From an uncultured Bacteroidota bacterium (GTDB lineage: Bacteria; Bacteroidota; Ignavibacteria; UBA10030; UBA6906), in contig CAVOYH010000003.1 of the NCBI GenBank assembly GCA_963700635.1, positions 672,001-736,000 of the forward strand: a stretch of DNA of 64,000 nucleotides, given 5' to 3'. Within the stretch, counting starts at the first letter, position 1; every line of letters begins with the position of its first letter. A model generated the notes under the pieces. That model had not been told where the DNA came from and made no database searches. It worked only from the letters and a program-made list of their open reading frames with translations. Shown piece by piece: positions 35,007 through 39,424 of the stretch. A program made the position numbers and the translations under genes.

Positions 35007-37322
35007 TTACAACGGATCCCGCTCAACGCCAAGTTCCCAGCGCCGGCTTTGCCGCATCAGCGAATCAAAATAGTGACTGTTGGGATTCGTCTGCAATCTC
35101 CCATTCGCCTTCAGCAAATCCACCATTAAGTCGTAGCTATCCCCCGTTGACGTGTACAGGAATCGCATGTGCCTGTCAAATGTGTAGTTGAGGATTGGCT
35201 CCGAGGGCCATCCCGGCGGGATATCGGGGCCTAATCCGTCACTGATGCACGCCGTGATTCGTCCGAGCCGCTCATCAACCTTTGTAAACAGAGCTGAATT
35301 TCCCTTGCTTGAGCCACGGAAGGCATCTCCCACGGCCGTGCGCGGAATCAGGATATAGTATTTCTCCCTGGCTGCAACGGGGGCATCACAGCGGTACTCT
35401 CCTTGTGTCGGAGAACAGCCATCCATCTGTCCGACTTCCAGAACTGCAACAAAGGCACGCCGGTATGCATTGTTGACGCCACAGGCAACAATCTCTTTCA
35501 CCCCATCCTGATCCACATCTCCGACTTCGATATCTGCCACATGTCCGACATGGACGTATTGTTCCCGTATTGTACCGTCGCGCCCATTCAGGCGCACGAC
35601 AAAACCTGGAAATGATGGTGTGTGCGACCCCGAAACAAACACATCCGGAGCGCCCTCCACACCGGTATCCATGACCACGATGTCTGAGTTACAGTAGGTT
35701 CCTCCGAGGGTTTCCTGCTTTTCTGGAAAAAGCGCCCTGGGAATGATCGTCGTTCGCCAGAGAAAAGTTTCTTTTTGAATGGACCATGCGCACACCTCAT
35801 CGTGTACCACCAGACGATCCGAACTGGTCCGGACAAATACGATATCGGGAACATGATCTCCATCAAAATCGCCGAAACCGTGCCCCTTCTGTGCCACCAT
35901 AGTGCTGACAAGACGTGTCCCCTTCTCAACAGTGGCCCTTCCTACGGTGATGTCCCCTATCATCTTTCCGTACCGGTTCTGCACCGTAAGTCTGTCGCCT
36001 GCATATTCCACCGATACAGGAATCTTATCCCATGATCCCGACAGGTGCCAGAGTGTCAACAGAACGAGCCCCGAGGATGCGACAAGTGCCACACTGCGGG
36101 TCTTTTTCTGCCATATCCTTCGGGCGGTATGAGCGACCAGACCCGACCGGGTATGCCGTGTCACCCGCCGGTCATAAAACACTTCCCGCACATGCCGCAC
36201 CCCGATCACATCCAGCACGCGGTGTGGATGATCCTTTGAGAGTGCCGCAATCAGACTTTCGGCAACGGTCAGGTGGTTCCTGGGGACGACCACGGCCGAG
36301 AGAGGGGAATAGAATACTGCTTCGAGTTTCTGTGGAAGCGTGCCCTCGTCAACGGGCATGACCGATCCGTCGGGATCCACATCTCCGGTGATTGCCACTG
36401 ATGAAAGGACGTCGTATTGTTCGCGTTGTCCGGCAGCGCGTGTTACGCCGGCGATGAGGAGGACCGCCAGGGCGAGGTTTGCCGACCCGCCTTCGTGCAG
36501 GGTCTGTTTGCCGCGGAACGTCGCATGGCCGCGCACATAGTTCCGGGCTATACGTGGCTGCATTTGTTCCAGTACGCTCCGCGCCGCTCTTGCCGAAGTG
36601 TCCCACACCGCTGCATGAACATCCTTCACTCCAAAGACGGCCACATCGGAATGCAGCTCATCTTTTTCGCCTCCTGCCGCACCGGTGATCTGAAGTTCCA
36701 GCATCTGCATTCCTCCCCACGATGCCGGCGCCGCACCCTCTGTCAGGCCATGTTCGACGACAGGAACAAAACAGGAGTTGGAGGATCGTTGAAGGGCAGA
36801 TTCCCAGTGTGCCTGGATTATGCGCAAGGAGGTGGAAACCGGGTGACCCGACGCTTCAACTTCGGCTGTCCACCGGCGTACCCGTTCAAACAAAGGCTCG
36901 CGACCCTCCTCTGGTACCGGCACGGTTGATCCCGGATCGCCACCAGCATCAAGAACCTGCCATGCCCTGTCCCGATCACCCGCGTACAGATACAACTCCG
37001 CCAGCCGTAATCGGATTTCATGTTCAATTTCTGCAAACATCGGTTCTAGGGCAAACCCTGAAACATCGTCCGCCAGAACTGCCAGCGTACGATGGAGTGA
37101 AGCAAGTGGCTGGGGGGAGAGTCCGAATGTCGGCAATTCCTGGATCGTCCCCTTCAGCCTTGGAAGGCAATCACGGATATACGATTCGTATACACCTGCC
37201 TCTTGGCCAAGAAAGGAGAGAAAATGGTCGAGTGCAACGATATCCTGAAGGGAAGAGTGGGGATAAGCGAGTGTGACAAGAAGGGTCTGGTAGTGCTGCT
37301 CGACCGTGAGAGGATTGTGCAT
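35007..37322 (-). CDS. Single-pass membrane protein: helical N-domain + AAA-less Lon (S16) protease domain + TM + FG-GAP repeat ectodomain
   Basis: HEGGSANLA (Ser280), VAITGDVDPDGSVMPV, PQKLEA (Lys332), VVVP.N, DVIGVRHVREV parallel the Lon protease domain; TM about aa 410-427; GDFDGDHVPDIV and GDVDQDGVKEIV repeats. Confidence 0.8.
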   Translation of the reverse strand: MHNPLTVEQHYQTLLVTLAYPHSSLQDIVALDHFLSFLGQEAGVYESYIRDCLPRLKGTIQELPTFGLSPQPLASLHRTLAVLADDVSGFALEPMFAEIEHEIRLRLAELYLYAGDRDRAWQVLDAGGDPGSTVPVPEEGREPLFERVRRWTAEVEASGHPVSTSLRIIQAHWESALQRSSNSCFVPVVEHGLTEGAAPASWGGMQMLELQITGAAGGEKDELHSDVAVFGVKDVHAAVWDTSARAARSVLEQMQPRIARNYVRGHATFRGKQTLHEGGSANLALAVLLIAGVTRAAGQREQYDVLSSVAITGDVDPDGSVMPVDEGTLPQKLEAVFYSPLSAVVVPRNHLTVAESLIAALSKDHPHRVLDVIGVRHVREVFYDRRVTRHTRSGLVAHTARRIWQKKTRSVALVASSGLVLLTLWHLSGSWDKIPVSVEYAGDRLTVQNRYGKMIGDITVGRATVEKGTRLVSTMVAQKGHGFGDFDGDHVPDIVFVRTSSDRLVVHDEVCAWSIQKETFLWRTTIIPRALFPEKQETLGGTYCNSDIVVMDTGVEGAPDVFVSGSHTPSFPGFVVRLNGRDGTIREQYVHVGHVADIEVGDVDQDGVKEIVACGVNNAYRRAFVAVLEVGQMDGCSPTQGEYRCDAPVAAREKYYILIPRTAVGDAFRGSSKGNSALFTKVDERLGRITACISDGLGPDIPPGWPSEPILNYTFDRHMRFLYTSTGDSYDLMVDLLKANGRLQTNPNSHYFDSLMRQSRRWELGVERDPL

Positions 37323-37419
37323 AGGAGCTCATGAGACTGCACATCGTACAAAGGGCTCAGGACGCGAGTGGCGGCCAACGGAAAATTCGGCGTGACACGG
37401 ACCGGTGAAGTTACCGGCT

Positions 37420-38265
37420 TTATCCGTACAGTCGCAACACGAAATCCCCCTCCCCTGCGGGGAATTCTCCTGCTCCATGGATCAGAATGCTCAACACGGC
37501 GTCAGACGGAGTCTTCACCAGTGCCACTGCTGGCAGGGCGGGATTTCCCTCGTCATACACACGGACACGGATGAGATCTCCGTTGTTCGTCACCTCGATT
37601 GTACAATGGTGGTCGTTCTCACCCTTCGTGTAGGCGATGGATTTCTCCAGGGGCAGGTCATTTCGGCCGAACGTAACTGTCGCCACCGGTATGCGAAGGA
37701 GTCCTTCGATCTGGGACCAATCACGCGGTTCCATTGCCGGCTGTAACTCAAAACCAACCTGCCCCCGGTCGTCCGTCACAAACTCGCCTATATCCGGAAG
37801 GGAGATCAGCACAACTTCTCGTTTATGCGGATCTTCCGTATGGACGTACAGGCGGTATGCATGCGCATCACCCTCACGCCGTATTCGTACAAGGGTGTTT
37901 TCGGGTTCAGATGCCAGTGTTGCGACCGTTTCGTCAAATCCACGGGCCAACGTCCGGGGTGTCATCGCCGCGAGCACCGTCGTATATCTGCCGTGCAGCG
38001 TGTGCATGTCAGGCCGGGGTCTGAAAGGGATAAGCCGGATGGTCGTTGCTGATGGGATAATCTTCTTCATAACTTCTGCGAGAAGATCTTTCTCCAGAGC
38101 CCCGGCGGTTACCATCGTCGCATAAAACTCCCGCTGCGCTTCCTCCACGGCCCTGCACCCCGGGCACCGGGCCAGATGTTCCCGTATTTCTACGAGTGTG
38201 GCAGCATGCAGTCGCTCAGGGGCGACAATACTGAGTTCGATTGTATGTTCGTCAATATGGTTCAT
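37420..38265 (-). CDS. Soluble zinc-binding anti-sigma factor-like protein (zf-HC2/ZAS)
   Basis: H3...H30-LAR-C34-PG-C37 (HxxxCxxC) at N-terminus; no TM helix; beta-rich C-terminal part. Confidence 0.75.
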   Translation of the reverse strand: MNHIDEHTIELSIVAPERLHAATLVEIREHLARCPGCRAVEEAQREFYATMVTAGALEKDLLAEVMKKIIPSATTIRLIPFRPRPDMHTLHGRYTTVLAAMTPRTLARGFDETVATLASEPENTLVRIRREGDAHAYRLYVHTEDPHKREVVLISLPDIGEFVTDDRGQVGFELQPAMEPRDWSQIEGLLRIPVATVTFGRNDLPLEKSIAYTKGENDHHCTIEVTNNGDLIRVRVYDEGNPALPAVALVKTPSDAVLSILIHGAGEFPAGEGDFVLRLYG

Positions 38266-38342
38266 TGTTACTATTGGTTATGCGCAAATCTCTCCTCCCA
38301 CAGAAATCCGCCGTTCTCTCTCCACCGGTTGGGGAGAGCCAA

Positions 38343-39374
38343 TCACGGAACTTTTCCGATCCCCAATTCCCGTCTGATTTGTCGTACAAACGCCGCCCTT
38401 GCGAGTTTTACCAGGTATTCAAATCGACACCGGTGCTCCTGATGATATTGTTCCAATGTCAGCAAGGGTATTCCCGCGGCGAGATGGTCATGGTACGAGG
38501 TGGCGTGTCCGTCGTTTAAAATGAACTCAGCCCGGAGAATCGCCTGAACAGCTTCCCTGTAGGCGCTGAATGTTGTTTCAGCCACCGTTCCTTTCTCTAC
38601 ATAGAGCCTGTGCTTTTTGTCAAATACAGCAGTCACCGTTCCGGTGATTGCCGCTTCAAGTTCTTCCGGACGGATCGCCGATGAAGTGTCCGTCTCTTCC
38701 GGGGTTGTTGCAACACCGATGCGCAAAAAGGCCGTGCGGATCAGCAGGCCAAGCAGCGTTAACGGATAACTCCTCCGGTAGATATTCTGTTGATCCAAAA
38801 TACATGCAACACGATCCATCACTTCAGGCATGACGCTCTTTCCCGAGAGGTCCACAACAAGGAGGCCCTCAAGATATTCCCAGGGGATCTCCGGCAGCTG
38901 CCGGATGTGCTCGGTCTCTGTCGTTACCTGCACCCACAACTCGCCGTTGCGGCGATCTTCAGTCAACCGGGAATTCTTCCGGATGGCATTGCGGATATTG
39001 CGAAGTATCTTTTCCAGAGAGGGATCGGACTCTTTATAGAGCCGTGACAGTTGCTGATGGACTTTACTGTAGACGAGGCGGCGGGTGAAGGAAAGAAGCT
39101 CCTCTTCGGAGAGCGAGTCCCATCCAAGGGGCGTATAGTATGCGTGCAGTTGAACGAATCGTCCGCTTCCATCCCGTTCATAGAGGGGCCCGATACAGTC
39201 GACAGCGAGATCATGAACAGAAAGACCAAAAAAATCGGGATGGATGGTACGTGCGTGGATTCTCTTATGAAGATAGACCGTGGCAATCCGAATCGTCAGG
39301 GCAACATACGGCTGCATATCCGTCGTTGTCGGGTGCGGCGCGAGAATGCGTCGGAGGGCTTCGCTGAGATGCAT
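38343..39374 (-). CDS. Divergent ECF-like sigma factor (putative)
   Basis: Region-2-like HDLAVDCIGPLY...FTRRLVYSKVHQQLSRLYK; C-terminal region-4-like FEYLVKLARAAFVRQIRREL; directly upstream of a ZAS gene; ATG 39374 with AGGGG SD. Confidence 0.55.
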   Translation of the reverse strand: MHLSEALRRILAPHPTTTDMQPYVALTIRIATVYLHKRIHARTIHPDFFGLSVHDLAVDCIGPLYERDGSGRFVQLHAYYTPLGWDSLSEEELLSFTRRLVYSKVHQQLSRLYKESDPSLEKILRNIRNAIRKNSRLTEDRRNGELWVQVTTETEHIRQLPEIPWEYLEGLLVVDLSGKSVMPEVMDRVACILDQQNIYRRSYPLTLLGLLIRTAFLRIGVATTPEETDTSSAIRPEELEAAITGTVTAVFDKKHRLYVEKGTVAETTFSAYREAVQAILRAEFILNDGHATSYHDHLAAGIPLLTLEQYHQEHRCRFEYLVKLARAAFVRQIRRELGIGKVP

Positions 39375-39424
39375 TGTTCCCCTGAATGTCAGCAGCAGCA
39401 ATGCCCCGTGGGGGCACTGCCGTA

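Follow-up and report, generated by a model that had tools for sequence, protein, structure and literature searches.

A conserved LAA motif in the linker of a ZAS-like anti-sigma protein as a candidate cut site and degron paired with a membrane Lon-like protease

Introduction

That bacteria pass envelope signals on to transcription by regulated proteolysis of anti-sigma factors is textbook knowledge, and in the routes known so far the anti-sigma is cut either by two successive membrane proteases, as in the RseA type, or by a cytoplasmic protease gated by a cyclic nucleotide, as in the case of CalpL. A locus on contig CAVOYH010000003.1 of an uncultured Bacteroidota bacterium (NCBI GenBank assembly GCA_963700635.1) raises the question of what a single tripeptide may contribute to such a route. 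The locus lies within a stretch of 64,000 nucleotides (positions 672,001 to 736,000 of the forward strand; hereafter the window, whose own numbering is used throughout) and encodes a soluble, ZAS-like anti-sigma protein, placed between the genes for a sigma-like protein and for a membrane-anchored Lon-like protease. A first-pass annotation, made from the sequence alone, noticed a Leu-Ala-Ala (LAA) tripeptide between the helical and the beta-rich parts of the anti-sigma and proposed that the neighbouring protease cuts directly after it, leaving a sigma-binding fragment of ~11 kDa whose new end is read as an ssrA-like degron by ClpXP. Is this tripeptide a functional element and, if so, for which step?

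Here, we show that LAA forms a sharply conserved island in an otherwise variable linker and that its presence goes together with that of an adjoining protease gene. We are confident that it functions as a linear motif and that this function is linked to the protease, and we regard a cut at LAA or next to it as probable; for the full chain, in which a cut after A100 is followed by removal of the fragment via ClpXP or an equivalent, the balance tips only slightly towards likely. Most likely, LAA plays a dual role, as the cut site of the protease and then as a C-terminal degron that mimics the ssrA tag.

Results

A conserved island in a variable linker

The anti-sigma-like protein has 281 amino acids and is encoded on the minus strand at 37420..38265, stop codon included. 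The stretch around the motif is HGRYTTVLAAMTPRT, with the local reading HGRYTTV-L98-A99-A100-MTPRT. Codon mapping places V97-L98-A99-A100-M101 at exactly 37963..37977 on the minus strand, the interval given by the first-pass annotation, with the single codons at 37975-37977 (V97), 37972-37974 (L98), 37969-37971 (A99), 37966-37968 (A100) and 37963-37965 (M101); the conserved [LM]AA island itself, the predicted P3-P1 residues and new C-terminal degron, corresponds to the L98-A99-A100 codons at 37966..37974. The calculated mass of residues 1-100 is 11.26 kDa, in agreement with the size that had been estimated for the fragment. A lone LAA in one protein is unremarkable against chance: about 0.26 copies are expected from the composition of the anti-sigma, at least one was present in 4563 of 20000 shuffles (23%), and one fell inside residues 81-112 in 559 of 20000. 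What exceeds chance is its conservation.

An exhaustive HMMER search for the anti-sigma family collected 150 representatives (50%-identity clusters) at E ≤ 1e-3, mostly of 270-290 amino acids; 73 also passed E ≤ 1e-10. The alignment used here comprises 124 proteins of 240-330 amino acids, out of 152, shorter and much longer ones (mostly fragments) having been excluded, and its mean column identity is 18%. Against this divergent background, 107 of the 124 representatives have L98, 116 have A99 and 119 have A100, and among all 281 columns A100 ranks 1st, A99 3rd and L98 8th by information content. The tripeptide is LAA in 103 members and MAA in seven, with AA at positions 99-100 in 114; a motif absent from homologues, which the annotation had named as the outcome that would speak against its proposal, is thus not what the family displays. 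The surrounding linker columns are gapped and variable (including 86-95 and 103-109), except for 97-102, and the information profile of the 124 sequences contains no second conserved island in the linker, so that conservation in this variable linker is concentrated on LAA, the pattern that the annotation had suggested looking for.

The profile across the motif is asymmetric. Information rises steadily over residues 95-100 (0.90, 1.28, 2.41, 3.39, 3.80 and 4.02 bits) and falls to 1.53 bits at residue 101, and such a ramp up to A100 followed by a drop is the profile expected for a C-terminal degron ending at A100. In protease nomenclature, the P4 position is V, L or I in 101 of the 114 members with AA and P2' is T or S in 88, with P1' variable between them (M in 43, Q in 24, A in 14, K in nine, D in eight, and others). 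Downstream, the spacing from A100 to T116 is held at 13-15 residues in 107 of the same 114 members, even as the sequence of the spacer itself is not conserved; a fixed tether of this kind is the pattern that a docked enzyme working at a set distance would impose. The upstream spacer, from P80 to L98, ranges from 10 to 18 residues.

The motif goes together with the adjoining protease

The locus belongs to a conserved gene order in which a sigma-like gene is followed by a ZAS-like gene and then by a gene for a membrane Lon-like protease. In the window, all three are on the same strand and separated by gaps of 97 bases (37323-37419) and 77 bases (38266-38342), an arrangement consistent with one operon. 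The anti-sigma family profile has matches in 57 of 401 phylum-wide genomes (E ≤ 1e-5, with matches to the N-terminal domain only also counted), and the single anti-sigma protein, used as a query, in 19 of 61 close relatives.

Related loci were scanned with hidden Markov models of the three module proteins. Of 36 distinct loci, 35 have the sigma-like gene next to a ZAS-type gene, and the exception (L012) stops at a contig edge. After a fragmented locus (L031) was dropped, 32 distinct loci with a full family-type anti-sigma remained, 29 of which have an adjoining Lon-like gene; in all 29, the anti-sigma carries [LM]AA (25 LAA and 4 MAA). Among the three loci that have no adjoining protease, two have lost the motif. 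In one (G034, L006) it is replaced by S-A-G, and the only Lon-like gene of that genome lies beside a second family member, which keeps MAA; in the other (G221, L025) it is replaced by I-Q-A, the Cys motif is also lost, and no Lon-like gene was found in the 99%-complete genome. Both proteins otherwise retain the beta-domain. The third (G367, L011) keeps LAA, in the context VLAAQ, and its genome carries two orphan Lon-like genes on another contig. Loss of the motif where the protease is absent is the direction predicted for a protease-dependent motif.

Several of these genomes display variations in the module itself. In G367, the two Lon-like/FG-GAP genes (L038 and L040, encoding 828 and 776 amino acids) are located on contig 21 with no sigma-like or ZAS neighbour, and the sigma-like/ZAS pair (L011/L043) is on contig 41, apart from them; the module can therefore be split. 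G194 encodes two full-length family members, at C12:5319-6164 and C12:10576-11391, about 4.4 kb apart and on opposite strands. L031 (G359:C5:169270-172662) has the appearance of a copy in decay: its Lon-like open reading frame (ORF) is uninterrupted, and its sigma-like and ZAS-like genes are each split into three short ORFs. L033 (G395:C14:306314-309790) is a divergent copy, with a ZAS-like ORF of just 176 amino acids that still has MAA. The sigma-like family is also found paired with proteins of 467-562 amino acids in which a ZAS domain is joined through a transmembrane segment to an ectodomain, with no Lon-like neighbour (L034:1-1686, L035:1501-2901 and L036:1498-2952). These ectodomains are homologous to that of the protease (blastp E 1.3e-23, 2.0e-16 and 2.2e-14, at about 25% identity over about 230 residues), and this shared ectodomain, together with the sigma-like partner, indicates that sensor and output exist in two wirings, one through a direct membrane anti-sigma and one through a sensor-protease and a soluble anti-sigma with the LAA linker, which supports a role in signalling.

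Predicted structure of the anti-sigma

An AlphaFold2 model of the anti-sigma, built on the 124-sequence alignment, has a mean predicted local distance difference test score (pLDDT) of 89.4 and contains helices at residues 6-14, 21-33, 35-53 and 59-69, a strand at 75-80 and a strand-rich region at 113-280, with residues 81-112 free of secondary structure. Residues 98-101 are the sole segment with a pLDDT below 50, and the blocks 91-100 and 101-110 average 59 and 58, against 92-97 for the beta-domain. The model agrees with the placement that had been given to LAA, between the helical part and the beta-rich C-terminal domain, and in it the motif, far from being buried in a folded domain, falls in the least confident, unstructured segment. 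LAA would accordingly be predicted to sit in an accessible, unstructured stretch. No transmembrane-grade segment is apparent, as the top 19-residue Kyte-Doolittle mean is 1.54 and lies within the beta-domain; the modelled protein is soluble and does not span the membrane in the manner of RseA.

Four regions can be delimited. The helical anti-sigma domain (residues 1-69, 38059..38265, minus strand) carries the zinc motif H30-x3-C34-x2-C37 and is linked to known proteins by matches to Pfam zf-HC2 and RslA. By sequence, its match to ZAS is weak: zf-HC2 (PF13490) gives E 0.011 and 16.3 bits, under the gathering cut-off of 22.2, and the NCBIfam anti-sigma models are far below their cut-offs. The family profile reaches RslA in the PDB (3hug_B, E 5.2e-4), and in VIA-align comparisons the domain is matched, with middling Z values, to RslA (Z 6.2, root mean square deviation 3.3, 62 of 62 residues, 24% identity), RsiW (5.5), PupR (5.2) and MucA (5.0). 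All 27 closer members share H3, H30, C34 and C37, and C37 is kept in 93 of the 124. Profile and fold comparisons agree in pointing to a ZAS-like N-terminal domain.

The linker that holds the LAA island (residues 81-112, 37930..38025, minus strand) is defined by the AlphaFold2 model and by column variability. It is followed by a first beta-sandwich (residues 113-192, 37690..37929, minus strand), which complex prediction and conservation mark as the putative protease-docking domain and whose conserved blocks are TVATLASE, LVRIRRE and YRLYV, and by a second beta-sandwich in the AlphaFold2 model (residues 193-281, 37423..37689, minus strand), with middling VIA-align matches to TRAF/MATH-like and Ig-like sandwiches (Z ≤ 6.9). 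A Foldseek search of the anti-sigma model against the PDB returned no match at E ≤ 0.001, and no CalpT chain was among the best 50 VIA-align matches to the model, most of which were taken up by residues 193-281, which leaves room for a resemblance.

Predicted docking on the protease

For the complex prediction, alignments of 14 rows for the protease (residues 1-410) and of 124 rows for the anti-sigma were supplied. The scores of the three runs were 0.67, 0.69 and 0.69, while none of the three controls exceeded 0.00; in a calibration that is rough, since own alignments were used, 116 of 157 solved complexes and 2 of 215 mismatched pairs attained the docking mark. The runs share at least 75% of their contacts, with a partner pLDDT of at least 74. 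The interface is formed by protease residues 1-20, 44-54 and 193-195 and anti-sigma residues 81-90, 111-144 and 167-169, bringing the TVATLASE, LVRIRRE and YRLYV strands against the conserved NPL-VE--FQ-L at the beginning of the protease. The first beta-sandwich is therefore predicted to dock on the N-terminus of the protease. As this would explain the other conserved blocks of the anti-sigma and not LAA, the motif needs a separate explanation. The passing score could echo the complex of the SsCalpL N-domain with CalpT10, the structure of which has reportedly been solved; the sequence similarity of the protease to CalpL is marginal (E 0.09).

Degron machinery of the host

The transfer-messenger RNA (tmRNA) of the host encodes the tag ADYNYALAA, and the segment of the anti-sigma up to A100 ends in TTVLAA. 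The host also has clpX (615.5 bits, cut-off 370.75) with an adjoining clpP (331.4 bits, cut-off 308.6), so that both an ssrA-type tag ending in ALAA and its likely reader, on which the first-pass annotation had relied, are encoded in this organism. In 13 genomes of the phylum, including the host (L045 and L059-L070), the tmRNA tag ends in LAA nine times and in MAA four times, and ClpX in these organisms presumably accepts both ends. The [LM]AA variants of the motif are the tag-end variants of the phylum, and this shared repertoire lends weak support to a degron function. We also considered whether the choice between L and M in the motif follows the tmRNA tag of the same genome and rejected this, there being no genome-by-genome match: in G008 the tag ends in LAA and the motif is MAA, and in G411, G178, G233 and G367 the tag ends in MAA and the motif is LAA.

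The membrane Lon-like protease

The gene downstream of the anti-sigma (35007..37322, minus strand) encodes a protein of 771 amino acids that consists of an N-terminal helical domain, a Lon S16 domain, one transmembrane helix and an FG-GAP ectodomain. Residues 1-54 (37161..37322, minus strand), which include the conserved NPL-VE--FQ-L start, represent the predicted docking surface by interface and conservation. The predicted catalytic serine, S280 (codon 36483..36485, minus strand), aligns with the Lon Ser of Archaeoglobus fulgidus LonB, and the predicted catalytic lysine, K332 (codon 36327..36329, minus strand), with the Lon Lys; both are invariant in 14 of 14 aligned homologues, and the complete Ser-Lys dyad is present in 31 of 32 distinct Lon-like ORFs. 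The protein matches A. fulgidus LonB with E 2.8e-4, and its family profile reaches Lon proteolytic domains with a best E of 3.3e-7 and about 45 Lon sequences listed; the single sequence scores 12.5 bits against Pfam Lon_C, under the cut-off of 21.1, and neither Pfam nor NCBIfam reports an AAA+ family in it. Because the Ser-Lys dyad is conserved and the profile matches Lon proteolytic domains, the protease is likely active.

The hydrophobic helix covers residues 410-429, SVALVASSGLVLLTLWHLSG (36036..36095, minus strand; Kyte-Doolittle), and follows the basic stretch RRIWQKKTR. Its top 19-residue windows reach 1.61-1.63, and homologues are hydrophobic at the same position. The remainder, residues 430-771 (35010..36035, minus strand), is the predicted extracytoplasmic sensor domain, with an FG-GAP-like repeat (Pfam FG-GAP_3 at residues 557-612, E 1.6e-5). 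Relatives of both the protease and the anti-sigma appear in public sources as 'hypothetical' or without a name.

The sigma-like neighbour

Upstream of the anti-sigma gene, the window encodes a protein of 343 amino acids at 38343..39374 on the minus strand. Its ORF is listed from a TTG at 39401 (352 amino acids), while homologues begin at the ATG at 39374 (343 amino acids, MHLSEALRR...), which is the more likely start. Sequence and profile searches of Pfam, NCBIfam and the PDB gave no meaningful match for this protein, and a Foldseek search of its AlphaFold2 model (pLDDT 89.9) against the PDB gave none at E ≤ 0.001. In VIA-align comparisons, about 15 of the best 50 rows pair residues 1-116 of the model with region-2 domains of sigma factors, among them pro-sigmaK (Z 7.5), SigW (7.2), CnrH (6.6) and region 2 of sigmaE (6.6), with further matches to SigB, SigK, sigma32, SigE, WhiG and others. 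In the ESM Atlas, the nearest clusters are unnamed and those of Sigma70_r2/r4 come up only at 0.83-0.84, which is a lead and no more. Sigma-like is a reasonable if tentative reading of the fold of this protein.

Discussion

A proposed mechanism

The observations can be assembled into the following scheme. At rest, the ZAS-type N-terminal domain of the anti-sigma (residues 1-69) would hold the 343-residue sigma-like protein, and the first beta-sandwich (residues 113-192) would attach the anti-sigma to the helical domain at the N-terminus of the protease, on the cytoplasmic side of the membrane. A signal perceived by the FG-GAP ectodomain would activate the Ser280-Lys332 dyad, perhaps that of an adjacent protomer, as happens in filaments of CalpL. 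The linker, its cut site kept 13-15 residues away from the docked domain, would then be cut after A100, and the 11.3-kDa fragment so produced would end in ...TTVLAA, resembling the ...YALAA terminus of the host tag. Unfolding and degradation of this fragment, by ClpXP or by another system that recognises ssrA-type tags, would release the sigma-like factor.

Relation to known systems

The closest functional parallel is the CalpL-CalpT-CalpS system of type III CRISPR. In a preprint by Smalakyte et al. (bioRxiv 10.1101/2024.05.08.593097), CCaCalpL activated by cyclic tetra-adenylate (cA4) is reported to cut the LAAA motif of CCaCalpT between A204 and A205, which bears out the precedent that the first-pass annotation had invoked, a CalpT cleavage that exposes a C-terminal degron. 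The same source reports that the N-terminal fragment of CCaCalpT remains on CalpS in vitro, that the new ...LQLAA end acts as a C-degron in Escherichia coli and lowers the fluorescence of green fluorescent protein, that the A204D substitution prevents sigma release and CalpS toxicity, and that cutting occurs in trans, by a neighbouring protomer of the filament, with the cut site of a bound CalpT on the far side of its holder; its authors liken the CalpT end to the VAA end of RseA and its recognition by ClpXP.

Both systems are encoded by three genes, whose products are a Lon-type Ser-Lys protease that lacks an ATPase module, an anti-sigma and a sigma-like factor, and in both the protease is ordered as an N-terminal domain, a Lon domain and a sensor towards the C-terminus. 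In both, the C-terminal part of the anti-sigma sits on the N-terminal domain of the protease, reportedly in a solved structure for SsCalpL and CalpT10 and by prediction here, and in both the anti-sigma carries a poorly structured, Ala-rich site, the cut of which at LAA|A leaves an LAA C-degron in CCaCalpT. On the other hand, CalpL has a cytoplasmic SAVED sensor that binds cA4, whereas the protease described here has a transmembrane helix and an FG-GAP ectodomain and gives no SAVED match; CalpT has MazF-like and DUF2080 domains, whereas the Pfam scan found neither here (E ≤ 1) and the anti-sigma consists of a ZAS domain and two beta-sandwiches instead. Further differences are the sigma-like partner, a protein of 343 amino acids without a sequence match to any sigma family, and the marginal similarity of the protease to CalpL at the level already given; no PADLOC defence model is matched by any of the three proteins. 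In its workings, the module resembles CalpL-CalpT-CalpS, but it is not a member of that family.

RseA/sigma-E (with DegS, RseP and ClpXP) offers a second parallel, in that an outside signal is answered by a cut, the cytoplasmic anti-sigma fragment is left with an xAA degron (VAA) at its C-terminus, and ClpXP then frees the sigma factor by removing this fragment. RseA, in contrast, is a membrane protein cut by a periplasmic site-1 and then by an intramembrane site-2 protease, whereas the anti-sigma here is soluble and one membrane-anchored Lon-like protease would hold both the sensor and the cytoplasmic cutting site, in a single step. With ZAS proteins (RsrA, RslA, RsiW and ChrR), the anti-sigma shares the H-x3-C-x2-C motif and the helical anti-sigma domain; it differs from them in its sub-cut-off Pfam score, in C-terminal domains and an LAA linker that are not described there, and in a partner that is no recognisable extracytoplasmic function (ECF) sigma factor. 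The motif shares its three residues with the C-terminus of the host ssrA tag ADYNYALAA, but it is internal, would become a degron only after a cut and is not added by trans-translation. A full-text literature search, which left subscription journals largely uncovered, returned the CalpL papers but none on a membrane Lon-like/FG-GAP protease with a ZAS anti-sigma. What is known is a cut that exposes an xAA degron; what is undescribed is the sigma-like family and the wiring of sensor and protease into one protein.

Alternative explanations for the conserved motif

The tripeptide could be a recognition and cut site of the protease (P3-P1) and nothing else, with no ssrA-like degron and no ClpXP step, the sigma-like protein being freed by separation from the membrane-tethered docking domain or the fragment being unstable for other reasons. 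Conservation that reaches P4 (V/L/I in 101 of 114) and P2' (T/S in 88 of 114) is reminiscent of protease subsites, the L/M choice of the motif is independent of the tmRNA tag of the genome, and this explanation accommodates the constant distance to the docking domain and the joint occurrence of motif and protease equally well. It would, however, turn the information peak at A100, with its sharp drop, and the identity with the end of the host tag into coincidences, and in the two CalpT systems studied, the fragment stays on the sigma factor, release in the case of CCaCalpT having needed the degron. We therefore consider a pure cut site unlikely. A role as a binding motif that is never cut, either as a pseudosubstrate in the Lon-like active site or as a peptide that folds on the sigma-like protein or on the protease, with signalling through loss of the LAA contact or through a cut elsewhere, appears less likely still. 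Islands of conservation within low-confidence linkers are typical of short linear motifs that fold upon binding, the scissile bond is not placed by the predicted complex, and co-occurrence with the protease would also suit a motif that binds it; yet the confident interface is made by residues 81-90 and 111-169 and not by 98-100, the conservation of the dyad in 31 of 32 ORFs argues for cutting, the linker has no other conserved island, and a Lon-type protease, CalpL, is known to cut LAA|A.

That LAA is kept for folding only, as an edge strand of the beta-domain or as part of a hydrophobic core, we regard as highly improbable. The neighbouring conserved segments TVATLASE and LVRIRRE are indeed strands and the composition of TVLAA is strand-like, but AlphaFold2 assigns no secondary structure to residues 81-112, with the lowest confidence at 98-101 next to a beta-domain at a pLDDT of 92-97, and the motif is lost in two members that keep the beta-domain and have no adjoining protease.

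The dual role as cut site and degron, which we prefer over these alternatives, has to be set against a number of observations that weigh against it. A low pLDDT, even one below 50, is not proof of disorder; conservation at P2' extends the motif beyond A100, where a pure degron would need none; and the choice between L and M does not follow the tag of the genome. The 29 of 29 loci come from related genomes and are not independent events, the contrast is provided by three loci only, and in L033 the partner keeps MAA next to a Lon-like ORF with no alignable Lys. Residues 98-100, S280 and K332 make no confident contact in the predicted complex, by which the position of the cut is neither placed nor excluded. 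By sequence, the protease is no nearer to CalpL (E 0.09) than to ordinary Lon and the CalpT domains are absent from the anti-sigma, which makes the precedent an analogy and not a case of homology, and the fold scores behind the sigma assignment (Z ≤ 7.5) are middling for a helical domain. Finally, cleavage of the anti-sigma, the position of the cut at A100, degradation by ClpXP and a working sigma factor are steps that we infer. The mechanism put forward in the first-pass annotation is in this sense partly supported, in that those of its parts that can be computed agree with it.

Implications

If the proposed chain holds, it would represent a third wiring for the proteolytic control of sigma factors, in which sensor and protease are combined in one membrane protein and a soluble anti-sigma is parked on it, and the logic of exposing an ssrA-like end would grow from two known cases to a family of 150 representatives at 50% identity. 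The finding also directs attention to a sigma-like family that Pfam, NCBIfam and PDB sequence searches have missed. More tentatively, many Bacteroidota-type genomes may hold an undescribed one-step transmembrane route, in which an ATPase-less FG-GAP/Lon-like protease responds to an external cue by cutting a soluble, pre-docked zinc anti-sigma at an internal copy of the ssrA tag end, ClpXP removes the fragment and the sigma-like factor is released; in evolution, this protease relay would have taken the place of the classical membrane anti-sigma and its site-1 and site-2 proteases.

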